From Patescibacteria group bacterium (GTDB lineage: Bacteria > Patescibacteriota > Minisyncoccia > JAHIHE01 > JAGLIN01), in contig JAYEHC010000102.1 of assembly GCA_034659355.1 (NCBI GenBank), positions 1 to 58,247 on the forward strand: a DNA stretch of 58,247 nt. The letters run 5' to 3'. Position numbers and translations under genes: made by a program. This document shows positions 9,414-48,199 of the stretch, one piece after another. Numbering within the stretch: the first letter of the stretch is position 1; each line of letters opens with the position of its first letter. The notes beneath the pieces are model-generated. The model had not been told where the DNA came from. It searched no databases and worked only from the letters and a program-made list of their open reading frames with translations.

Positions 9414-9477
9414 AAATTATTTGCAAGATAAGATGAAAGATATACAATTTTGTAAAAAGAATCCAATCAAGCATTTT

Positions 9478-9570
9478 TGTCGCCCCGTCGCAGTCTCCCG
9501 ATAGGGGACTGCGATGAGAAAACGCGTAATCCGCTGCAGTCCTATATTGAGAGACTGCAGCGAGGCGGAA
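9478..9570 (+). repeat. 93-nt double-hairpin element, copy 1
   Basis: TGTCGCCCCGTCGCAGTCTCCCGATAGGGGACTGCGATGAGAAAACGCGTAATCCGCTGCAGTCC..GAGACTGCAGCGAGGCGGAA. It recurs at 29408-29500 (inverted) and 47088-47180. Confidence 0.85.
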
Positions 9571-28851: not shown

Positions 28852-28934
28852 AATTCATTGTATAGTTTTTTTAAAATCAAACTAAAAAAGCTTTTTAAGA
28901 GTTATTATAAAAGCTTTTTATTTCTTAAAAAATG

Positions 28935-29337
28935 TGGAGATGGCGGGAATTGAACCCGCGTGTAGTTAATCCGTTTAAAAACTTTCTACCAATATAGATT
29001 GCTTAAAGAGTTTAAAACTAGCAAGTATGAAACAATCAAAAATCTTGCTAATTCGAATTTAGAACGGTTTCGGATGTTTATCTCTAAACAAAATAAAGTC
29101 CTATCTTGATGTATGACACCGGATTTTGCCTATCAAGATTTAGCAAACCGATGGCTGTCAGCCTAAATTTAGGCAACAGCGCCAGCAAAACTAACTTGTC
29201 TACTCGAAAATAGATTTGCTAATTTGCTTGTAAGTGTTTCTTTTGCACTTATATTTTGCAGGCAATTTTTATGAGATTAGCCGGCATGCTCAATTGGCAA
29301 TTTTTAAAAAAGATCACTATCGAATCCAATCATCCCC
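28935..29337 (-). ncRNA. ssrA: tmRNA (transfer-messenger RNA)
   Basis: On the minus strand the RNA starts GGGGAUGAUUGGAUUCGAUAG and ends GCGGGUUCAAUUCCCGCCAUCUCCA. The ends form a 7-bp acceptor stem with G3:U. A T-arm is present. The tag frame ends ..SFAGAVA-UAA, with the stop at 29171-29169 inside the palindrome GCCUAAAUUUAGGC. CCA is not encoded. smpB is adjacent. Confidence 0.9.
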
Positions 29338-29407: not shown

Positions 29408-29500
29408 TTCCGCCTCGCTGCAGTCTCTCAATAGAGAACTGCAGCGGATCGCGCGTTTTCTCGTCGCAGTCCTCTATCGAGAGACTGCGACGGAGCGACA
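29408..29500 (-). repeat. 93-nt double-hairpin element, copy 2 (inverted)
   Basis: It is the reverse complement of the 9478-9570 and 47088-47180 consensus and lies between ssrA and smpB. Confidence 0.85.
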
Positions 29501-29541
29501 ATAATTTGATATTTGATATTACGGATAGCATTACACAATTA

Positions 29542-29991
29542 CTACTCTTTATTTCTTAACATTCTTTTCATTTTCACTTTATCCTCTCGTTTCTTAATAT
29601 CTTCTCGTTTATCAATTTTCCTTTTTCCTTTTCCTATTCCGAATTCAAGCTTAATAAGCCCACGCTTAGAATACACCTTAATAGGCGCTAATGTCAAGCC
29701 TTTTTGTTTGACTTTTCCGATTAGCGATTTTATTTGACTTTTACGAATAAGCACTTTTCTTGATCTTTCAGGGTCGTAAGTAGCTGGCATATTAAGCGGT
29801 TGATAAGCGGAGATGTTGGCGTTTGTCAAAAACGCTTCGTTGCCTTTGATTGTTACGAAAGCTCCTTTTAAGCTGATGTGTCCTGTTTTAATTGATTTCA
29901 CTTCATATCCTTTTAAAACCAAACCGCCCTCTATTTTTTCAAGAATTTCATAATCATAATTTGCTCGTTTGTTGAATGCGAATGTTTTCAT
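29542..29991 (-). CDS. smpB: SsrA-binding protein
   Basis: NKRANYDYEILEKIEGGLVLKGYEVKSIK.. and a basic C-terminal tail fit the SmpB consensus. Confidence 0.93.
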   Translation of the reverse strand: MKTFAFNKRANYDYEILEKIEGGLVLKGYEVKSIKTGHISLKGAFVTIKGNEAFLTNANISAYQPLNMPATYDPERSRKVLIRKSQIKSLIGKVKQKGLTLAPIKVYSKRGLIKLEFGIGKGKRKIDKREDIKKREDKVKMKRMLRNKE

Positions 29992-38136: not shown

Positions 38137-41100
38137 ATGATCAAGTTATTTATAAAGTCTAAAATCACATTATTTTTTTTGTCGCTTGCAGTTTTCGCTT
38201 TTTTTTCTTATAGCGATAATAATAGCGTTCAATGTATAAAAAATGCAGAGGCTAGTTTATGCAAAGGTCCCGCTGATGTTGTGTTGGTTATAGATCGTTC
38301 GTCAACAATGGCTAATAGTTCAAAATTTGATATTACCAAAACTGCTAGTGTTGGTTTTATAAATGAGCTGTTTGCCACTGATCCAGATCCAAGTTATGGC
38401 GAATGCGCTTATCATCAGATTGGTCTGGTTGCTTTTAATAATAATATAGATAGTGAGTCATTGAACCAAAGCGGGTCCTTCATACAAAGTATTATAAATC
38501 AGAGCGATGGAATTCTTGGTAATGCTTATCCAATTGGTTATCGTAGAACTTCAAGTGCTATAGATATAGCAAAAAATAAGTTAGATTCTGAATCGAGCAA
38601 CGCTAACGCTTGCGCGACAAAAACAATGATTGTTTTAACGGACGGATCCCCGGATTATGATATAGATTTGGCTAAAGCGAATGCTGACCTTGCCAAGGCT
38701 AAAGGAATTAGAATTGTTTCCGTCGGTCTTAAATTAGATGAAATTACTAATCCTGCAGAAGAAGAAGAAGCAGAAAATTTTATAAAAAACATAGCTTCAA
38801 CATTTTCTGACTGCTACTATACTTCTGATTTTGGAAATACATTAGATTACTGCACCTCAATTTCCGGTGATAATTTAGAAGTAATTTTAACAACAGTTTA
38901 TAATAGTATCACGGATTCTATTTGCGATGAAATCCCGCCAGTTTTAAATATCCATAGAACTCCGCAGGGAACGCTTTATAATGTTGATGAATTATTGATT
39001 AAATCTATCGCTACTGATATTACCGGATTTAAAAGTCACAATTTAATCTGGAGCGATAATTGGCCAGATGATTTAGTGAATATTGAATGCGCTAATCTTT
39101 CGGGAACTGAAATAGAATGCGACACCGAAGCAATCGGTCCGTTTTCTTCCGGAAAGATATTGAATTATCGTTCAATGGCGGTGGACGCTAATGATAACGA
39201 AGGGGCTATTGATGATCCAAATCCGAGAGCAGCAACAGTCGCTACAGTTTCTTTGGATGTTCCAAATTTATTTAGAAATACGGACAATACAATTAGTGTT
39301 GATATTCTTGACCCGAACGGAAAAGCTGATTTTGATGATTTTTATATCACCATTGACACGCCGGCTTTAGGGGGTGTGGAAATAGAAAAGGCAACAATGA
39401 ATTGTTCCGGAAGCGGAAGCGAGAGAATCTGCGTTTATAGTTTTAATCCCGGGTGCGATTGGACGAATGGAATAACTGACGGTTTCGCAAATAATATAGA
39501 TGTCAATATCTATATTTACGCGGATAGCGATGATATGGATATTCGTCAAATAGCTTCTACTGAAAACCAATCACTTGCTTCATATTTTGAAGGTCCTTCT
39601 CTTATTTATCCCGGGACTTGTTCTGACGAAATAAATAATAATTGTAATTATATAAATAGTGATCCTAATCAACCGATTATTGATTCAGATGAAATATCTT
39701 GCGATACGGAAAATCCTTTGATTAGTAATTCTCGCGCTCCAAGCGGCGATGTTTATGATGATGATTCAATACTTCTTACATCTGATGCTACGGATGATAA
39801 TGGAATCAAACAACACATTATTTATTACAAAGAAAACAGTGGAGCTCGGCAAACTGCCTTTGATTGTAATGATACTAATGTTGATTCTTGGTGTGATGAA
39901 GATGCAAGTCAAAGTATAACAAATATTTCAGCTACGATAGGACCTTTTATCGCTGGAACGCAGATGAGATATCGTTCAATGGCTATTGATTATTCCGGGA
40001 ATAATAATGAAGCTTGGACAGAGCCGGCGTTATTCACTATAAAAAGTAGGGAGTGTGAGGGAGTCGGGGATTTAGGCGCGTGTCTGATTACTCCCGGCGG
40101 GAAATGCTGTGGCGGAGTCTGTAATGTTGCGATTTCAAATCCTGATTCTTACAATGTTGATTATTGCGCCATGGAAATGTGTAACGGAACTTCGTGGCGG
40201 TGGGGAATTGACTATACCAAAAATGATATTACTGACTGTAGCGACGACGGAAATTCTGACGGCTGTTATCCTTACGGAATAGGAGGATGTGAAGATAGGG
40301 ATTATTCCTGCGGGGATGGCTATTGCGTGGCAAGTACTACCAATCAGAATGGCGACGAGTGTATTGGGCTGGATTTTTATGACTATGAATGCAATAGCGG
40401 TTCGTGTGATTTTTCAGTTTTTAATAATGATCCAAGATGCGATGTAATATTAGACAATCTTTCTATCAACGCTTATAATAGCGATGATGTTTTGATAGTC
40501 GGAAGTTCCAGCTCTCTTACAAACGGGGAAGTGCTAAACAATTTAACAAATAAAGTTTCTTTAAATTCCGTTACGAGTGACACCAATGGCATTAGCGAAC
40601 AAAAAATATATTGGAAGAAAAGTGCTGAAATTGATTTTAGTATTGAAAATTGCGATGTTTCATCGTGCGGAGACACTTTAAACCCTTGTGATTGTTCGAA
40701 AGACATTGGCGCGTTTAATGCTGGCGAGATAATAGAATTTTACGCTTCATCAAAAGATGACAGTGTCAATCAGACAGAAGAAATTGAAGGAAGTTCCAAT
40801 GGTTTGAGATATTATTATTATGACGGAACTAATTTTGATGTTTATAAGGGGAGTGATGTTGATACGGATATAGATCATCACTGGAGCGGCAACCAGGTTA
40901 TCATTAACAGCAACAGCTGGGAAGATCAGTATGATTCAGTAAGCATAGTTTGGGATGGATTAGTAAGCCCGGATGTTTTGGGGGAGCACATTTTTTATGT
41001 TTCAATTGATGATGGGATGAGATTATATTTAGACGGAAATTTGGTTATTGACAAATGGTTTAGTCAGACAACCGAATATTACACAGCTTATGATTTTACT

Positions 41101-43971
41101 TCGCTTGAACCGATATCAATAAGGATTGAATGGTATGAAGGCTATGGTAGCGCCACGATGAGATTAGGATGGGATTCACCCAACGGATCAAAAGTTTATC
41201 CGATTCCTTCCGACAATTTAGTCGCTCCCTATTCGTTTGTTGTCCGTAACGGAGAATGCTATGATGTCCCCGGCGGAAATAGGCCGGATTTAACCTTTTG
41301 CGATTCAGGTAATGGCAGATGTTGCGGGGGAGTTTGCGATAGTTCTCAAGATTCAAATCCATACGATAGCGAATGTTCCGTTGACACATGCAATGGAACA
41401 GATTGGATTTATGAAGCGGGAAATGAAAATAATCCTTGCGGGTCAAGCGACACTTGCTTTGATTATTATTCTCCCAATAATCTTTTTTATAGCGGTTGTA
41501 TAACCGGTGGAAATAAATGTTCTTCTGGATATTGCGCTATTGCTTCAAGTTTAACTTCCACGCCTGCTTGTAGCGGAAACTTGCTTACTAATTATAGCTG
41601 TAATCCTGACAACGCGACAGGAACTTGTCAGGTAAAAGACACGAATATAGATTGTTCCATTGTCGGAGATTATGATAATGATTCTGCCTCTGGCGGTACT
41701 GCTTGCAACTGCGATTGCGATAATTATGATCTTGAAGAAAAAGTTTATTCCTCGCTGAATTTTGACGGGGTGGATGATTATGCGTATATATCTGACAGTT
41801 CAACTATGCAAGTTTCTTCATATACTGTTAGTGTATGGATTAAGCCGTCGCTTCAAAATGAATTTTATAGCGGTATTATTGGAAAACCTGGACGCAATTA
41901 TAATATGTGGTTGCTTAATGCTGACACAGACAATACTGGATATATTCATCATCGTTTTCACGATGATTCTAGTTGGAATTCTGGTTGCCTAGATACTCCT
42001 GCTGGATCTGTGCCTACTGATGTTTGGACAAATGTAACTATTACCAATGATGGTGTTAAATGTAGAACATATATTAATGGAGTGGAAAGTACAAGCGGCG
42101 ATGTTAGCGGTTCGCTTGTTGTAGATCCTGGCATTACATATATTGGTCGCAATCTTGATGGTAATAGTGAATATTATTTTAAGGGGAATATTGACGATGC
42201 TCGCATTTACAACCGCGCGCTTTATCCTGAAGAAGTTTTGGATCACCATAACGGAATTTTTGCGGATGATACGGGATTGGTTGGTCATTGGGATTTTGAT
42301 GAAGAGACGGGAGTAACGGTTAATGATATTTCTAGCAATAATAATAACGGGATATTAGAAAACGGTCCGCAGTGGATGAAGCATTATCATGAGAGTCCCA
42401 TTGGAAATAACGGGAATGTGCCAGAAAATTGGCAGGTTTGCACTGACGGAAAAGATAATGATTGTGATGGAACAAGTGATAATTATAATAATGACGACGG
42501 TATTTCTAATTGTGATGGTGAAATAGACGGTGTTTCTGTTAAAGCAAGCGCTGAAAATAGAGACGGGGTTAAAAATGATAATCTGTTTGGCACAGATTTT
42601 GATTTAACAATTGACGATGTTGATATTGAAAGAACAAGTAACGATTTTACAATAACAGCAAACGCAACCGATTATTTTCTAATCCGGCAAATAGTAATTG
42701 AATGGACAAATGATAATTGGATAAGTAGCAATAGTAAGGAGTGTGAAGATACTGGGATTTGCAAAGTGTGCATTGAGGGCGGAACATGCGGAGAGGGAAA
42801 TGATTTAATTCCCTCCTCATCATTGTCAGCGGGAAATACTTTCAACTTTAGAGTTTGCGCTTGGGACAACAGCGTTAATAATAATCAAGGATGCACAGAA
42901 TATCATGGTATCACAATATTGAACTCAAATATAGTGCCTGAAATAACCCCCTTGTCATTTCAAGAACCGGATTTTTGTGATGGAAATTTGAGTTATATAC
43001 TAAAGTGGAATTTTAGCGATCCGGATGGTGATGGACAGTCATCTTATGAAATTGAAGTTAAAGAAGGAAACAACGACTTTACTGATAATCTCACAGTTTA
43101 TGCTAAAAAATATCCTCCTGATCCGTATTTGTCTTCATATTATCAAATTTTAAGCGGTGATTTTGTAAATGACAATGAAATGGAATATAACAAAACATAT
43201 TATTGGCGTATTAAAGTCACTGATAATCGAGGAGGCGGATATGAACAATCTACGGACTGGATAGAAGGACCATCATTTGATACTCCTGAATATAAATATC
43301 CGCAAGTTGATTTTAGCGCAATTTCAGATCATTCAGGTAATTGTTTATATGGATTTGAATTTTTTGGCGCGGAGAACAGGTGCGATTTTGGAGAAGACAT
43401 AACATTTTCAGATGATTGTGAGAATCTTGTTGAGTGTACTAGTTCTAATAACAAACAGTGTTTGTCGACAAATTTCGCAAAGTGTAATCTTGTAAATAAT
43501 CTTTGCGTGTCTTGCGAGGATAATTCCGAGTGCGTTAAATTTAATTCTCCAAATGTCAGCTATTCTTGTAATATAGAAAGTGGGATATGCGAGGCTTCTG
43601 GTTCTTGCCTTACTAGTGATGATTGCAAGGCTGTTGATATCGCAAGATGCGACACAGGAGTTTGTATTTTATGCGATGATGATTCGCAATGTACTAACAG
43701 TAAGTTTGGAACCGTCGATATTGACTATTTTTGCAATAGTAGCGGAAAATGCGAAGACAGAGAATCTCGTAGGTGGTATTTTTATGATAGTATAAATATA
43801 AACAGCAACGACCCCAACCCAGTGAATAACTACATTAATTCAAGCGTTGACACTTATATTGTAACTCTAAAAATAAAAGATGTTTTAGGAAATATTTGTT
43901 CCAAGAGAAAAAATATATTTTTAGGTGGAATGGAGTATCCCAGATGGAATGAAATGCCTCCCTCTAATTAA
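38137..43971 (+). CDS. giant secreted multidomain cysteine-rich surface protein (vWA, repeated Ig-like modules, PA14, LamG, MopE-like motif, PKD-like C-terminus)
   Basis: 1944-aa uninterrupted ORF with signal/anchor KITLFFLSLAVFAFFSYS. Domain motifs are listed in the separate sub-features. Confidence 0.85.
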   Translation: MIKLFIKSKITLFFLSLAVFAFFSYSDNNSVQCIKNAEASLCKGPADVVLVIDRSSTMANSSKFDITKTASVGFINELFATDPDPSYGECAYHQIGLVAFNNNIDSESLNQSGSFIQSIINQSDGILGNAYPIGYRRTSSAIDIAKNKLDSESSNANACATKTMIVLTDGSPDYDIDLAKANADLAKAKGIRIVSVGLKLDEITNPAEEEEAENFIKNIASTFSDCYYTSDFGNTLDYCTSISGDNLEVILTTVYNSITDSICDEIPPVLNIHRTPQGTLYNVDELLIKSIATDITGFKSHNLIWSDNWPDDLVNIECANLSGTEIECDTEAIGPFSSGKILNYRSMAVDANDNEGAIDDPNPRAATVATVSLDVPNLFRNTDNTISVDILDPNGKADFDDFYITIDTPALGGVEIEKATMNCSGSGSERICVYSFNPGCDWTNGITDGFANNIDVNIYIYADSDDMDIRQIASTENQSLASYFEGPSLIYPGTCSDEINNNCNYINSDPNQPIIDSDEISCDTENPLISNSRAPSGDVYDDDSILLTSDATDDNGIKQHIIYYKENSGARQTAFDCNDTNVDSWCDEDASQSITNISATIGPFIAGTQMRYRSMAIDYSGNNNEAWTEPALFTIKSRECEGVGDLGACLITPGGKCCGGVCNVAISNPDSYNVDYCAMEMCNGTSWRWGIDYTKNDITDCSDDGNSDGCYPYGIGGCEDRDYSCGDGYCVASTTNQNGDECIGLDFYDYECNSGSCDFSVFNNDPRCDVILDNLSINAYNSDDVLIVGSSSSLTNGEVLNNLTNKVSLNSVTSDTNGISEQKIYWKKSAEIDFSIENCDVSSCGDTLNPCDCSKDIGAFNAGEIIEFYASSKDDSVNQTEEIEGSSNGLRYYYYDGTNFDVYKGSDVDTDIDHHWSGNQVIINSNSWEDQYDSVSIVWDGLVSPDVLGEHIFYVSIDDGMRLYLDGNLVIDKWFSQTTEYYTAYDFTSLEPISIRIEWYEGYGSATMRLGWDSPNGSKVYPIPSDNLVAPYSFVVRNGECYDVPGGNRPDLTFCDSGNGRCCGGVCDSSQDSNPYDSECSVDTCNGTDWIYEAGNENNPCGSSDTCFDYYSPNNLFYSGCITGGNKCSSGYCAIASSLTSTPACSGNLLTNYSCNPDNATGTCQVKDTNIDCSIVGDYDNDSASGGTACNCDCDNYDLEEKVYSSLNFDGVDDYAYISDSSTMQVSSYTVSVWIKPSLQNEFYSGIIGKPGRNYNMWLLNADTDNTGYIHHRFHDDSSWNSGCLDTPAGSVPTDVWTNVTITNDGVKCRTYINGVESTSGDVSGSLVVDPGITYIGRNLDGNSEYYFKGNIDDARIYNRALYPEEVLDHHNGIFADDTGLVGHWDFDEETGVTVNDISSNNNNGILENGPQWMKHYHESPIGNNGNVPENWQVCTDGKDNDCDGTSDNYNNDDGISNCDGEIDGVSVKASAENRDGVKNDNLFGTDFDLTIDDVDIERTSNDFTITANATDYFLIRQIVIEWTNDNWISSNSKECEDTGICKVCIEGGTCGEGNDLIPSSSLSAGNTFNFRVCAWDNSVNNNQGCTEYHGITILNSNIVPEITPLSFQEPDFCDGNLSYILKWNFSDPDGDGQSSYEIEVKEGNNDFTDNLTVYAKKYPPDPYLSSYYQILSGDFVNDNEMEYNKTYYWRIKVTDNRGGGYEQSTDWIEGPSFDTPEYKYPQVDFSAISDHSGNCLYGFEFFGAENRCDFGEDITFSDDCENLVECTSSNNKQCLSTNFAKCNLVNNLCVSCEDNSECVKFNSPNVSYSCNIESGICEASGSCLTSDDCKAVDIARCDTGVCILCDDDSQCTNSKFGTVDIDYFCNSSGKCEDRESRRWYFYDSININSNDPNPVNNYINSSVDTYIVTLKIKDVLGNICSKRKNIFLGGMEYPRWNEMPPSN
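38269..38916 (+). other. von Willebrand factor A domain of the giant protein
   Basis: DVVLVIDRSSTM with MIDAS D-x-S-x-T at 38293-38307. MIVLTDGSPD and IRIVSVGL strands. Confidence 0.75.
40795..41235 (+). other. PA14-like carbohydrate-binding domain of the giant protein
   Basis: GLRYYYYDGTNFD...VWDGLV.P...GEHIFYVSIDDGMRLYLDGNLVIDKW...IRIEWYEGYGSATMRLGW matches the PA14 pattern. Confidence 0.7.
41740..42390 (+). other. LamG/concanavalin-A-like lectin domain plus the start of a second truncated one
   Basis: LNFDGVDDYAYISDS..YTVSVWIKPS...GNIDDARIYNRALYPEEV, followed by GLVGHWDFDEETGVTVNDISSNNNNGILENGPQW. CTDGKDNDCDG (a MopE-like metal motif) follows at about 42440-42475. Confidence 0.7.
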
Positions 43972-44070
43972 TAGTTTAGTAAAAAAACCGTTTTTGATTT
44001 GTCGTATTGATATTTTCCTAGTATAATAAGATTATTAGGGTTTTAATGTTATAATAAATAAATATTTTTT

Positions 44071-45276
44071 ATGAAATTTAAATATAAAGCAACAACAATA
44101 GAAGGAAGAGAACAAAAAGGAAGAATTGAGGCCGGAAGTATTGAGAGGGCTGTTGAACTGCTCCAAAAACATAAGCTGATTATTGTTTCAATTAAACCAA
44201 TAAGAGAATTTGCTTCTTTTACTAAAATATTTTCTTTCTTAAACAGAGTTAGCAAGAAAAAAGTCGTGATGTTTTCAAAAGAGCTTTCTGTTTTGCTGAC
44301 AGCGAATATACCGCTTGTGGAAGCGTTAAAAATACAATATGAGCAAGAAGATAATCCCTATTTCCGCGAGCAGATATTTATGATTAGCAAAATGGTTGAT
44401 GACGGTGCTCCTTTTTCAGTCGCTCTGTCTCGTTTTCCAAATATTTTTTCAGATTTTTATGTGAACATTGTTAAATCTGGCGAAGCGTCCGGAAAACTGC
44501 AAGAATCGCTCTATCATTTGTCAGCCTATATTGAAAAACAACATATTTTGACAAGCAAAGTTAAAAACGCTCTAATGTATCCAGCTGTTATTATGGGAGG
44601 ATTTGGGTTGGTTGGATTAGGAATGATGGCTTTTGTTGTTCCGCAGCTTATTAGCGTGTTTGAAGGCAGTGGACAGGAACTTCCGCTTCCAACAAAAATT
44701 TTAGTTGCGTCTAGCAATTTCATACAAGGAAATTTTATTTTGATATTAATTTCGTTGATCGTTTTCGGTTATATCATTAAAAAATATGTTAGCACTATAG
44801 AAGGAAAAGAAAAAGTTGATAAATTTATTTTGATGTTGCCTCAGTTTAAAACAATCTTTCAAAAATTTTATTTAGCTCGGTTTGCGGAAAACCTATCAAT
44901 GCTTATTGGAAGCGGTATTCCAATAGTTAATGCTCTAAAAATTTCTGGGGATGTTGTTGGAAACGAGGTTTACAAAAAAGTGGTTTATAATAGCGTTGAT
45001 GAAGTAAAAATGGGAGGATCTATCGCTTATGCTTTTGAAAGAAGCAATAATGTCCCTCCGCTTATAGCAAAAATGATTAGAGTTGGGGAAAAAACAGGAA
45101 GAGTTGATATTGTTTTGAAAGATGTGGGAAAGTTCTATACAAAAGAAGTTGATATAGCCGTTGACGGACTAATGTCTTTAATAGAGCCTATTATGATCTT
45201 TGTTCTTGGCGGGGGAGTCGGTCTTCTCGTTGCTGCTATCTTAATGCCTATCTATCAAATGACAGAAACGATGTAA
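44071..45276 (+). CDS. pilC: type IV pilus / T2SS platform protein (GspF/PilC family)
   Basis: 401 aa with two T2SSF repeats (LSVLLTANIPLVEAL, LSMLIGSGIPIVNAL) and three TM segments. Confidence 0.88.
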   Translation: MKFKYKATTIEGREQKGRIEAGSIERAVELLQKHKLIIVSIKPIREFASFTKIFSFLNRVSKKKVVMFSKELSVLLTANIPLVEALKIQYEQEDNPYFREQIFMISKMVDDGAPFSVALSRFPNIFSDFYVNIVKSGEASGKLQESLYHLSAYIEKQHILTSKVKNALMYPAVIMGGFGLVGLGMMAFVVPQLISVFEGSGQELPLPTKILVASSNFIQGNFILILISLIVFGYIIKKYVSTIEGKEKVDKFILMLPQFKTIFQKFYLARFAENLSMLIGSGIPIVNALKISGDVVGNEVYKKVVYNSVDEVKMGGSIAYAFERSNNVPPLIAKMIRVGEKTGRVDIVLKDVGKFYTKEVDIAVDGLMSLIEPIMIFVLGGGVGLLVAAILMPIYQMTETM

Positions 45277-45282
45277 GGGTTT

Positions 45283-45732
45283 GAATTGTGAATGGAGAAT
45301 TGTGAATAAAAATAAGAAAATTATGAATAATAGTTCAGAAAAAATAAAATCATTTACAGATTTAAATGCATGGAAAGAGTCTCATAAGTTGGTGTTAATG
45401 ATTTACAAGATTACCAAAAATTTTCCTAAGGAAGAAATGTTTGGGTTAACAAGTCAAACAAGAAAAACTGCGGTTTCCGTGATATCTAATATCGCCGAAG
45501 GTTTTTCAAGACAATCCTATAAAGAGAAAATCCAATTTTATTTTATAGCCCAAGGATCATTAACAGAAATACAAAGTCAATTATTGATTGCAAGAGATTT
45601 GAATTATATCAATAAACAGGATTTTAATAATGTCGCTGACCAAGCAATTATAGCTCATAAGCTTTTATGTGGTTTAATAAAAAAGTCAAAAGATATTAGT
45701 ACTCACAATTCACAATTCACAATTCACAATTC
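45283..45732 (+). mobile_element. rRNA-IVS-style cassette: four-helix-bundle ORF bracketed by inverted heptamer repeats
   Basis: The left arm GAATTGTGAATGGAGAATTGTGAAT (45283-45307) is the near-exact reverse complement of the right arm CACAATT x4 + C (45704-45732). Together they enclose the four-helix-bundle coding region. Confidence 0.55.
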
Positions 45733-46273
45733 TAATAACAAAAACGGTTTTACCTTGCTTGAATTAACTATTGTTATGGCTATTATAAGTATTATGAGCA
45801 TTATAGTAATTGTTGGGTATAGCAGTCAACGAGATTCTAAAGCGTTGTCTTTGGGAGAAAGTCAAATTATTAACGATATTAGAATTGCGCAGGGAAAGTC
45901 TTATAATATTTTAAGCATTAATGGCACATCTTTTCCGGAAGGCGGATATGGAATTAGATTTACAGAAGATTCTAATAAATATCTGATATTTGCCGACAAT
46001 GATAATAACAGGATATATACTAATATGACGGAAAATTATGAAGAAGTTGAACTTCCTAAAAATGTTAAGATCAGTTGTTTAGAAAAAGGAAGTGGATGTC
46101 TTGGTAGCGGTGGCTTTGCGGATATCGTTTTTCAGCCTCCTTATGGCAAGGTGTTTATAGATGGAGATGAAAAAACGATAGCGGGTGATTTCATAAATCT
46201 TGAAATTGAAATCAAAAATCAAGGCGGTTCTACTAAAACTATTGAAACGAGCAGTTCAAGACTGATAAAATAA
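45323..46273 (+). CDS. four-helix-bundle (23S rRNA IVS protein family) domain fused in frame to a prepilin-type N-terminal cleavage/methylation protein
   Basis: aa 1-125: FTDLNAWKESHKL..FGLTSQTRKTAVSVISNIAEGFSR..AQGSLTEIQSQL. Then THNSQFTIHNS (heptamer tract). Then NKNG|FTLLELTIVMAIISIMSIIV plus a pilin-like globular part. No start codon precedes the pilin part. Confidence 0.75.
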   Translation: MNNSSEKIKSFTDLNAWKESHKLVLMIYKITKNFPKEEMFGLTSQTRKTAVSVISNIAEGFSRQSYKEKIQFYFIAQGSLTEIQSQLLIARDLNYINKQDFNNVADQAIIAHKLLCGLIKKSKDISTHNSQFTIHNSNNKNGFTLLELTIVMAIISIMSIIVIVGYSSQRDSKALSLGESQIINDIRIAQGKSYNILSINGTSFPEGGYGIRFTEDSNKYLIFADNDNNRIYTNMTENYEEVELPKNVKISCLEKGSGCLGSGGFADIVFQPPYGKVFIDGDEKTIAGDFINLEIEIKNQGGSTKTIETSSSRLIK

Positions 46274-46305
46274 AAATTAATGTTATAGAAAGTGTTAAAA
46301 CTAAG

Positions 46306-46866
46306 ATGAAAATATTTTCAAAAAAACAAAATAAAAACGGATTTAGCATAATAGAGGTTATTGTTGCCACTGGAATTATTACAATTGGAATTATTCCTAT
46401 CATTGCGCTATTTAATCAAAATCTGAAAAGCGAAATTAGAAATAAAAATGTGCTTATTGCCACTTATCTTACCAATGAATCAATTGAAATTGTCAGGCAA
46501 AAAAGAGACAATAATTGGTCTGCGGGAGTAGATTGGATGACAGATATTCCAACTGGAGATGTTATCGTTGGGCTTGATAACAACAATGATATTAGAACAG
46601 GATGGGAGGTTGTTACGCCCGGAAGTATTGGCTACAGAAAAATTTATTTATCCGATGATGATTCTTATGTTCAATGTGATAATAGTTCTCTTGGCTCTTG
46701 GACAGAAACACCTTTTGAGAGATATTTAACGATAGATACTGGCGCGGGAACAAGCGGATGTCTTGCGGGACATGAAGATGATTGTATGCGGATAACTTCC
46801 TATGTTCTATTTGGCGGAACTCAAATTGTTGAAGTAACCGCTTACTTATACGATGACTGGAAATAA
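46306..46866 (+). CDS. prepilin-type (pseudo)pilin
   Basis: MKIFSKKQNKNG|FSIIEVIVATGIITIGI class III signal with Glu+5. Confidence 0.85.
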   Translation: MKIFSKKQNKNGFSIIEVIVATGIITIGIIPIIALFNQNLKSEIRNKNVLIATYLTNESIEIVRQKRDNNWSAGVDWMTDIPTGDVIVGLDNNNDIRTGWEVVTPGSIGYRKIYLSDDDSYVQCDNSSLGSWTETPFERYLTIDTGAGTSGCLAGHEDDCMRITSYVLFGGTQIVEVTAYLYDDWK

Positions 46867-47087
46867 TAAATTTATAAATAGGGGCTGCTGATTTTCTCCA
46901 ATTATTCCTCCCCTTGAATAAGAGGAGGCTAGAAGGGGTTTGAAAAACTGGCTTAAACAAACTGAATTATTTTTTAAAATATTTCTGAATTTATCTCTTT
47001 TTATAAAAAATAGATAAAAATCAGCAGAGCCTATTTAAATTCTTCATATGAAATGCAGCTATAATAAATTTAGGACTTCTTCATTTT

Positions 47088-47180
47088 TGTCGCCCCGTCG
47101 CAGTCTCTCGATAGGAGACTGCGACAAGAAAACGCGCAGTCCGCTGTAGTCCTCTATCGGGAGACTGCAGTGAGACGGAA
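47088..47180 (+). repeat. 93-nt double-hairpin element, copy 3
   Basis: TGTCGCCCCGTCGCAGTCTCTCGATAGGAGACTGCGACAAGAAAACGCGCAGTCCGCTGTAGTCC..GAGACTGCAGTGAGACGGAA, located between two pilin genes. Confidence 0.85.
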
Positions 47181-47213
47181 ACAAAAAAAAGGGAACAGTA
47201 ATAAATTCTTTAT

Positions 47214-47759
47214 ATGAAACACAATTATAATAAATTACATAATAAAAACGGTTTTACACTGGTGGAAACACTGGTGGCTGTTGGGATATTTTCCATAGTA
47301 GTTTCTGTGGCAGTCGGAGCATTTATTGGAAGTAGCAGTTCGCAAAAAAAAATTATAGAACTTTCCGACACTCAAAGAGAAGCGAGTTATTTAATAGAGA
47401 CAGTTTCCAGAGAGTTAAGAATGGCAACGGCGATAAATCCAGATCAAGAAAATAACAATACTCACAAGATAGAATTCACTAACTATGAGTCTATTTTAGT
47501 AGAATATTGCCGAGCTGACCAAAGTGGAAATTGCGATAATAGCGGTGATTATTTTGCGCGCGACGGGGAGATTATAAATTCTTCTAAGATAAAAATAACA
47601 AACTTGATTTTTTATGTAACTGATAATTTTGATGGTCTGGCTCCCGTTGAAGATAAAAAACAACCAGTTATTACCGTCTCTATGAAAGTGCAATCAACTG
47701 GCAAGTATGGCACGGAATTTGTATTACAAAACAGTATTGCGTTGAGATTATATAACTAA
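47214..47759 (+). CDS. prepilin-type (pseudo)pilin
   Basis: MKHNYNKLHNKNG|FTLVETLVAVGIFSIV class III signal. Confidence 0.85.
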   Translation: MKHNYNKLHNKNGFTLVETLVAVGIFSIVVSVAVGAFIGSSSSQKKIIELSDTQREASYLIETVSRELRMATAINPDQENNNTHKIEFTNYESILVEYCRADQSGNCDNSGDYFARDGEIINSSKIKITNLIFYVTDNFDGLAPVEDKKQPVITVSMKVQSTGKYGTEFVLQNSIALRLYN

Positions 47760-47770
47760 TAATTTAGAAT

Positions 47771-48199
47771 ATGAAAGATGGAAATCTGACGATAATTAAA
47801 AAAAATCAAAAAGGGCAAGCGGCTTTGCTGATCGTATTAATTGTAATGGGTTTATTATTGTTTGTTAGTTTAGTCTTAACGAATATGATTGCGAAACGGA
47901 CAAAAACAACTAATGACGCTTTGCAATCTGTCCAAGCGTACTATTTAGCGGACTCTGGAACAGAACAGCTTTTATATTTGTGCAAGGCGCTTCCAGAAGG
48001 TCATTCAGATGAAGTAAAGCCTGCTAGCGGTTCGTCGGATTTAATACCAAGCGGTCCGGGAAAACAAGGTATTGATTTTGACGGTGGCGGTGTTGACGGT
48101 TATTTTAAAGCTGTTAGAGAACAGAGCGCTCCGCTCCTAGTCCTAAAAATCACCGGCTATTATAAAAATACCGCGAGAGCCGTGCGATTGTCTTACTGA
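47771..48199 (+). CDS. PilX-N-like pilus assembly/minor pilin-like protein
   Basis: KGQAALLIVLIVMGLLLF hydrophobic N-terminus without the G|F site, and QAYYLADSGTEQ resembling the PilX_N pattern. Confidence 0.55.
   Translation: MKDGNLTIIKKNQKGQAALLIVLIVMGLLLFVSLVLTNMIAKRTKTTNDALQSVQAYYLADSGTEQLLYLCKALPEGHSDEVKPASGSSDLIPSGPGKQGIDFDGGGVDGYFKAVREQSAPLLVLKITGYYKNTARAVRLSY

Follow-up and report, generated by a model that had tools for sequence, protein, structure and literature searches.

A conserved cysteine-rich VWA-PA14-LamG protein encoded beside pilC and minor-pilin-like genes in Patescibacteria: a candidate PilY1-like adhesin without the PilY1 docking domain

In type IVa pili (T4aP), PilY1 is a non-pilin protein in which a type I signal is combined with a VWA domain at the N-terminus and which is encoded together with the four core minor pilins; PilY1 and these pilins prime assembly, and PilY1 ends at the pilus tip, where it is the proposed tip adhesin (PMC7541494, PMC8833165). 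In Streptococcus sanguinis, a VWA module is grafted on the minor pilin PilB (PMC8179133). In TM7x (Nanosynbacter lyticus), the large proteins PilX1 and PilX2 of the type IV pilus (T4P) locus have no PilD signal, show lectin-like folds (an L-type jelly roll; a propeller) and have been put forward as tip adhesins; host binding depends on cell-wall glycans, and a two-step model of pilus followed by surface adhesin has been proposed (PMC11623550). Here we describe a locus at positions 38,137 to 48,199 of a 58,247-nt stretch of DNA (hereafter the window; GenBank assembly GCA_034659355.1, contig JAYEHC010000102.1) from a Patescibacteria group bacterium, in which the gene for a 1944-aa multidomain protein, referred to as the giant, precedes pilC and a series of pilin-like genes. 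Patescibacteria live attached to other microbes, the means by which they recognize and hold their hosts are largely open, and experimental data on host attachment come from the Saccharibacteria model only. A literature search for this giant protein family in pilus loci of the candidate phyla radiation found no description of it.

The giant belongs to a module of conserved type IV filament genes in a Paceibacteria/Parcubacteria-type clade of Patescibacteria. It very likely functions with this filament system, and we put at roughly 0.55 the probability that it is a non-pilin adhesin displayed, like PilY1, at the tip of a type IV filament, an interpretation supported at the level of comparative genomics. 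What is new is a PilY1-like, pilus-linked putative adhesin without the PilY1 docking domain, in Patescibacteria. Coordinates of the features discussed are collected in Table 1.

Table 1. Features of the giant-pilC-pilin locus, in positions of the window
Feature	Position	Strand	Description
Giant gene	38137..43971	+	Open reading frame (ORF), 1944 aa; Cys-rich multidomain putative adhesin, secreted or anchored
N-terminal signal peptide or membrane anchor	38137..38217	+	aa 1-27; basic n-region, 14-residue hydrophobic core
VWA domain	38275..38832	+	aa 47-232; Pfam PF00092, E 3e-15, 57 bits vs gathering score 23.8
PA14 domain	40795..41199	+	aa 887-1021; PF07691, E 5e-13, 49 bits vs 24
Laminin_G_3 (concanavalin-A-like lectin)	41764..42237	+	aa 1210-1367; PF13385, E 3e-24, 86 bits vs 27.6
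CTDGKDNDCDG motif	42439..42471	+	aa 1435-1445; nearly invariant in family
C-terminal module	42934..43968	+	FN3/Ig_Rha78A_N-like, PKD-like split by Cys-rich insert, YPRWNE tail
Spacer between giant and pilC	43972..44070	+	99 nt; no terminator-like site
pilC/gspF-type platform protein	44071..45276	+	401 aa; two Pfam T2SSF (PF00482) domains, E 1e-54
Inverted-repeat 5' arm	45280..45314	+	Tandem heptamers, GAATTGT-like, right after pilC stop
IVP-prepilin fusion ORF	45323..46273	+	316 aa from ATG 45323 (NCBI annotation); 330 aa as mechanical ORF
Inverted-repeat 3' arm	45694..45735	+	(CACAATT)x4, translated as linker THNSQFTIHNS
Prepilin 1 (C-terminal half of fusion ORF)	GFTLLE 45746; G/F 45746/45749	+	N_methyl 31.0 bits
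Prepilin 2	46306..46866	+	GFSIIE; PilV/GspI-like; N_methyl 21.4 bits
GC-rich two-hairpin repeat	47078..47180	+	In spacer between prepilins 2 and 3; not a pilus part
Prepilin 3	47214..47759	+	GFTLVE; ComGE/ComGF/GspJ-like; N_methyl 31.2 bits
Fourth pilin-like protein	47771..48199	+	142 aa; PilX/GspK/ComGG-like N-terminus, without G/F...E5

The giant starts with MIKLFIKSK-ITLFFLSLAVFAFF-SYS, and the order of a basic followed by a hydrophobic segment is kept in its homologues. Its 88 Cys residues (4.5%) are concentrated in aa 600-800, 1000-1200 and 1700-1900, in line with the N-terminal signal or anchor and the Cys-rich character noted in a preliminary description of this DNA made from the sequence alone. 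The prepilin motif G/FxxxE is found neither in the giant nor in its 11 homologues and, judged by this class III signal motif, the giant is not a type IV pilin. Its predicted type I signal-like N-terminus and the VWA domain that follows reproduce the N-terminal feature of the PilY1 family. The putative metal ion-dependent adhesion site (MIDAS) of this domain consists of D53-x-S55-x-T57, T138 (RRT) and D169 (LTDG), and the string DRSST, already recognized as a MIDAS in the preliminary description, begins at D53 (nt 38293). Across 12 family members, D53 and S55 do not vary, and RRT138 and LTD169G are kept in most homologues, the two most distant having LISG; the string has the form DxSxT, compared with the canonical DxSxS (Thr for the second Ser). 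The nearest solved relatives in a profile search of the PDB are the collagen-binding integrin alpha-2 I domains.

The regions called PA14-like and LamG-like in the preliminary description likewise score above the Pfam cut-offs. Carbohydrate-binding modules (CBMs) are among the solved relatives of these two domains: in the PDB, PA14 matches the corresponding domains of RsgI3-type sensors from clostridia (E 1e-22), and Laminin_G_3 matches an arabinanase CBM, a sialidase CBM and the tetanus-toxin HC jelly roll. The proposed metal motif CTDGKDNDCDG is present, but its assignment to Cu-binding_MopE is not borne out, as neither MopE (PF11617) nor PKD (PF00801), a further family suggested for profile scans, gave a Pfam match to the giant at E 0.1. 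A match to Ig_Rha78A_N at aa 1622-1715 falls just under the Pfam cut-off. The 11 homologues are 34-57% identical to the giant, all come from Patescibacteria, and all have the VWA...LamG layout; PA14 occurs in only some of them, and the column identity drops to 0.15 at aa 901-1000 because most homologues lack it. An identity with TafC of archaeal Tat-fimbriae was considered and rejected, the NCBIfam match being limited to the LamG region (40 bits against 410).

The 99-bp distance between the giant gene and a co-oriented pilC, read from the sequence in the preliminary description, is correct, and the conservation of this adjacency, on which that description had let the proposed link depend, was examined in contigs carrying giant homologues, in five species-representative genomes and in contigs found from prepilin 1 and PilC, with genes mapped by tblastn. 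The giant adjoins pilC in all 11 lineages in which the pilC side is readable. It lies immediately 5' of pilC in ten of them, with spacers of 5 nt (L001, L014), 8 nt (L009), 18 nt (L005), 48 nt (L008), ~160 nt (L018), 177 nt (L006), 201 nt (L015), ~290 nt (L010) and 415 nt (L016), and in the eleventh (L003) the order is rearranged within one cluster (pilC, pilins, PilN set, giant). The contigs of L004 and L012 end at the giant, and that of L018 ends inside pilC. Four pilin-like genes are present too in nine of the 11 lineages, the exceptions being L005 and L018. Starting from the other side, orthologues of prepilin 1 led to a giant in 3/3 long contigs, and PilC orthologues of at least 68% identity led to one in three of four readable cases (L017, of the same lineage as L015; L018; and L021, of the same lineage as L014), the fourth being L019. 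Distant PilC proteins (<40% identity) occur without a giant.

In most relatives, five genes directly 5' of the giant complete the module. These encode a 185-aa membrane protein, PilN (about 280-286 aa, starting MSSINLLPK; 41 bits against a cut-off of 22.8), a ~210-aa protein named PilO-like from its position and layout only, a ~110-111-aa membrane protein and, next to the giant, a ~220-226-aa transmembrane (TM) protein whose ectodomain is rich in Cys. Followed by the giant, PilC and four minor-pilin-like proteins in H-I-J-K order, these five make up the complete module of the relatives; the window keeps the stretch from the giant through PilC to the fourth pilin-like gene. The five-gene set was not found in the window by BLASTP and profile hidden Markov model (HMM) searches against all six-frame ORFs, so the module is split in this genome and the other machinery must be on other contigs. 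The split differs between close relatives: in L005, pilB (T2SSE) stands after pilC in place of the minor pilins, and the giant is not preceded by the PilN set (L005:8638-11805). L005, whose pilC is 81% identical to that of the window, also shares further flanking genes with it (AspRS and a 535-aa protein). In two relatives, a 150-170-aa Cys-rich protein with a weak match to T4SS_pilin (VirB2/TrbC-like) is encoded just 5' of the module (L008:2846-3361, L004:6080-6535).

PilC is 67-88% identical among the relatives and nearly always 401 aa long. In NCBIfam it scores 362 bits with GspF and 292 bits with PilC, both under the equivalog cut-offs of these cross-matching families. Downstream, the three prepilins with a G/F site listed in the preliminary description all score above the N_methyl (PF07963) gathering score of 21.2, the first of them being half of a fusion ORF (described below) rather than a stand-alone gene. 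Its model shows a lollipop of helix and beta-sheet (pLDDT, the predicted local distance difference test score, 86). Orthologues of prepilin 2 are 50-55% identical in the six aligned loci, and those of prepilin 3 are 55-61% identical. The fourth gene had been called PilX-N-like; its product does have a hydrophobic N-terminus of PilX/GspK style (GQAALLIVLIVM), but it lacks the N_methyl feature and its HMM matches are weak only (tapirin N-terminus 0.002), no profile supporting the name better than GspK at E 0.096. The gene is nevertheless kept at this position in nine relative lineages, with 35-55% identity by tblastn. The best NCBIfam matches of the four genes are, in order, GspH/ComGD, PilV/GspI (PilV 3.5e-6), ComGE (7e-8; ComGF 1e-5, GspJ weaker) and tapirin N-terminus/GspK. 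Two points strengthen the analogy with PilY1: these genes best match the four minor-pilin classes in order, all under cut-off, and PilN (above cut-off) and the PilO-like gene flank the giant in relatives.

The giant family combines a constant tail with variable heads. The last ~350 aa are conserved, with the tail consensus [YL]P[KR]WNE, while the heads vary in the presence of PA14, the number of LamG domains (one or two) and extra inserts. In an AlphaFold2 (AF2) model of the last 355 aa of the giant (mean pLDDT 64), the FN3-like and Cys-rich domains are confident, and the top Foldseek matches are FN3 domains. An exhaustive search of 1.84 billion representative sequences with a profile of the last 71 aa gave ~21 representative clusters that match the tail end to end at the extreme C-terminus, comprising giants and shorter proteins; a word-indexed search found only one extra protein. 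The remaining matches are generic PKD repeats, and because the last 71 aa match many such proteins, a divergent split PKD domain in the giant is likely. Many of the shorter matches may be gene fragments, and only two complete small proteins are used as evidence. One of these, of 423 aa (L003:682-1953), is encoded in the pilus cluster of a lineage that has a giant too; it has GWISF-type repeats followed by the giant's FN3-like/PKD layout and ends in LPKWNE, its last 58 aa being 36% identical to the giant C-terminus. The other, of 450 aa (L019:8526-9878), contains GWISF-type repeats and then Ig_Rha78A_N and PKD in the layout of the giant, ends in ...KPTWNEVEPE, and fills the giant's slot upstream of pilC. 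We infer that the C-terminal module is the part that ties the giant and the small tail proteins to the filament machinery.

In the mechanism we favour, the giant would be a Sec-exported, disulfide-rich, dedicated component of the filament module. After export, its C-terminal FN3-like/split-PKD/[YL]P[KR]WNE module would dock on the priming complex of four minor pilins, the docked giant would be carried outward at the filament tip, and its variable head (a MIDAS-like VWA, PA14 in some members, one or two LamG) would recognize proteins or glycans at the surface of a host or partner cell. Of the pilus-linked adhesion module put forward in the preliminary description, the genetic link to the pilus genes is conserved, and docking through the C-terminal module, the place at the tip and the class of ligand are what we infer. 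Several observations weigh against display at the tip. A PilY1-type beta-propeller was found neither by Pfam (E 0.1) nor in the AF2 C-terminal model nor by Foldseek, and that model is moderate, with the PKD halves and the tail at pLDDT <50. The N-terminus of the giant may be an uncleaved anchor. The minor-pilin class assignments are all under curated cut-offs, and the globular domains of the pilins remain unclassified: PDB profile searches matched the N-terminal helix only, and Foldseek gave nothing with E <0.06 for the prepilin 1 model in spite of its pLDDT. Neither a major pilin nor PilB, PilT, PilD or PilM (0 matches; the preliminary description had seen none of the four) was found among the 45 Pfam-scanned ORFs of the window, which include every ORF of at least 200 aa, and the PilN set adjoins the giant neither in the window nor in L005.

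Some of these points would suit an adhesin of the envelope or cell surface, held by its N-terminal helix or by the neighbouring small Cys-rich membrane protein, and co-expressed with the pilus but not part of the filament; retraction of the pilus would then bring a partner cell within the giant's reach. A possible uncleaved anchor, the ~226-aa TM and Cys-rich protein encoded directly 5' of the giant in most relatives, the lack of the PilY1 docking domain and the two-step model of pilus and then adhesin proposed for TM7x (PMC11623550) all fit such an arrangement. We nonetheless rate it as fairly unlikely, as it leaves unexplained both the retention of the C-terminal module and invariant terminal tail while heads are swapped, and the tight packing (5-18 nt) against pilC and the minor pilins. 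The module could also be a pseudopilus (type II secretion- or Com-like) whose cargo, the giant, would be driven across the wall or S-layer of a cell that has no outer membrane, given that the best family score of PilC is that of GspF, that the pseudopilins GspH, I, J and K or ComGD-G are the best matches of the four pilins, and that the module has no major pilin. All such scores are under cut-off, however, and the PilC families cross-match; moreover, PilN is typical of T4aP alignment complexes, a secretin or wall channel is neither known nor seen, and type II systems do not usually have their cargo genes embedded in the machinery operon. A pseudopilus appears improbable. It is scarcely credible that the giant is an unrelated surface protein that stands beside pilC incidentally in this genome, although its upstream neighbours in the window are housekeeping genes and the 99-nt spacer contains a promoter-like site. 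That site (TTGTCG-17-TATAAT at 43999-44027, the only match in the spacer) is given no weight because such matches are common in the AT-rich window, as they are in shuffled sequence (60 found in the window, 46 expected after shuffling). A search of the spacer for terminator-like hairpins found none, so the strong terminator that the preliminary description would have taken as a sign of independent expression is absent. Above all, chance adjacency is excluded because the giant and pilC adjoin in all 11 readable lineages, down to 34% identity and while the flanks change, and because the reverse searches from prepilin 1 and PilC lead back to the giant.

The IVP-prepilin fusion is the most unusual element within the studied coordinates. 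Directly after pilC, a single ORF encodes a four-helix-bundle 23S rRNA intervening sequence (IVS) protein (IVP) to ~45700, the linker and prepilin 1; the IVP family has been described as functionally uncharacterized (10.1101/2024.02.27.582315). The domain 23S_rRNA_IVP (PF05635) covers residues 27-129 of the 330-aa ORF (123 bits against 33.8; TIGR02436, 115 against 24). It lies in one frame with the N_methyl domain, with no stop codon and no ATG, GTG or TTG between them, and the junction at the G/F site reads DISTHNSQFTIHNSNNKNG/FTLLEL. The heptamer arms on either side of the IVP part are 85-89% complementary in a repeat search, and the minimum free energy (MFE) fold of the RNA closes them (z = -3.75).

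At least 16 protein clusters of other metagenomes contain such a fusion. In P0020-P0027 the fusion is 57-62% identical to that of the window and has the linker QNSKFKIQNS, from (CAAAATT)n; P0033, P0036, P0039 and P0040 have IVP fused to another pilin type; P0063, P0090 and P0102 are more distant IVP-prepilin fusions; and P0030 and P0080 contain internally deleted IVP remnants, still in frame and with no other start codon. In L014 and L015, the fusion lies directly after pilC in modules with a giant. Between the pilC stop and the G/F site of prepilin 1, tandem 7- or 8-mers form an inverted repeat in all relatives, with a lineage-specific unit sequence. This repeat contains no ORF in L008 (14410-14484) and L009 (17789-17859), with z ~-5.5 for both, has a 114-nt loop in L010 (9400-9583), and is accompanied by a separate IVP gene in L003 (4748-5211). 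In L001 (11220-11335) and L006 (14360-14490), the loop holds the pilin ATG, and translation of the 3' arm gives a leader of 21 aa; the sense-strand stems of both have mismatches, and in L001, the one of the two whose antisense strand was folded, the antisense RNA folds much better than the sense RNA (-46.6 against -27.4 kcal/mol; z -6.5 against -2.4). IVP domains are also called as fusions in P0064, P0095, P0104, P0105, P0110, P0119, P0124, P0053, P0056 and P0068, with dihydrofolate reductase, RNase H, radical SAM, gamma-carbonic anhydrase, sigma-70 r2, NuoD, short-chain dehydrogenase and other N-terminally hydrophobic proteins as partners. The repeat-like linker peptides of these protein sequences fit stop-free repeat arms, and ORFs may therefore run through IVP junctions with unrelated proteins. 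A diversification of the giant by a diversity-generating retroelement (DGR), suggested by the match of the accessory protein family bAvd with IVP, was rejected: in contrast to a DGR Avd, the window protein scores 27 bits with the Avd model against a cut-off of 80, and there is no reverse transcriptase among the 45 scanned ORFs.

Two more far-reaching readings, which we regard jointly as doubtful, may be drawn from these data. One concerns the giant, which may represent a PilY1-independent class of type IV filament adhesins in which a constant FN3/split-PKD/[YL]P[KR]WNE tail docks on the minor pilins and the heads are exchangeable, being either the VWA-PA14-LamG head of the giant or small heads of GWISF repeats. 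The other concerns the fusion. The IVP gene may be a selfish cassette between inverted tandem heptamers, established where a minor prepilin has its leader peptide. Its product may be translated as a ~140-aa leader on the cytoplasmic side, from which prepilin peptidase would release the four-helix bundle and the mature pilin at the G/F site; the topology of the fusion is compatible with translation because prepilin leaders face the cytoplasm. If translated, this would to our knowledge be the longest prepilin leader, and it would provide the first expression context outside rRNA for the widespread four-helix-bundle IVS protein. The in-frame heptamer tract could, in addition, switch the pilus tip complex on and off by strand slippage.

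The 347-nt spacer between prepilins 2 and 3 contains a GC-rich element of ~100 nt that is present in three intergenic copies in the window (47078-47180; ~9468-9570, +; ~29408-29510, -), none being expected by chance, and an Rfam scan of this spacer matched no family. The element is bracketed by a 35-nt direct repeat (86%; 47036-47070 and 47202-47236) that copies the ATG and first codons of prepilin 3, so that it looks like an insertion with target duplication. A second inverted repeat in the same spacer (46875-47037) has 32-nt arms that are 78% complementary and a 99-nt loop, and an overlapping 115-aa ORF (46613-46960, -) is probably spurious. Elsewhere in the window (G+C ~33%), the 5' neighbours of the giant identified by Pfam are dCTP deaminase, sigma-70 and MnmA, and the pilus cluster is followed 3' by a small Ig-like protein and then enolase. 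A tmRNA (115 bits; 28932-29337, -) adjoins smpB (29542-29991, -) in an ordinary arrangement, with a copy of the GC-rich repeat between them.

The locus provides a defined and conserved candidate for host recognition and holding, with three classes of binding module in one protein that is genetically tied to pilus priming genes. The constant tail and exchangeable heads suggest that host range may evolve by head swapping. By analogy, the role of PilY1 may be filled by a protein without the PilY1 docking domain, and such an adhesin would be relevant to the assembly of tip complexes in cells that presumably have no outer membrane.

The IVP part of the fusion (45323-45700) resembles 23S rRNA IVSs in that a long inverted repeat encloses it in its loop. 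Unlike the IVSs of rRNA genes (S23p), it lies in a pilus operon, in mRNA between pilC and a prepilin with which it is in frame, and its arms are tandem heptamers. The giant itself, like PilX1 and PilX2 of TM7x, is a large protein of a patescibacterial T4P locus with a lectin-like domain and no prepilin signal, a likeness by description; PilX1 and PilX2 belong to a different phylum-level lineage and differ in domain sets and sizes, with no VWA reported (PMC11623550). Like PilY1 of Pseudomonas aeruginosa and Myxococcus xanthus, the giant is a non-pilin protein with an ordinary signal-like N-terminus, an N-terminal VWA domain and four pilin-like genes alongside, in the window and in nine relative lineages, the class assignments of these pilins being sub-threshold. 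Unlike PilY1, it has no C-terminal beta-propeller (PilY1 domain), is about twice as long, and contains 88 Cys, PA14 and LamG domains and an FN3/PKD/tail module of its own, and its host is a Patescibacterium, in which an outer membrane is presumed absent. The giant is not a member of the PilY1/Neisseria PilC adhesin family, since the propeller that defines this family was looked for and is absent. In Streptococcus sanguinis, the minor pilin PilC carries a lectin module. The giant shares with PilB and PilC of this species the association of VWA and concanavalin-like lectin modules with a type IV pilus in a cell without an outer membrane; however, PilB and PilC, which possess a class III signal and an alpha-1 helix, are true pilins and carry the modules separately, whereas the giant joins VWA and lectin modules in one non-pilin chain.

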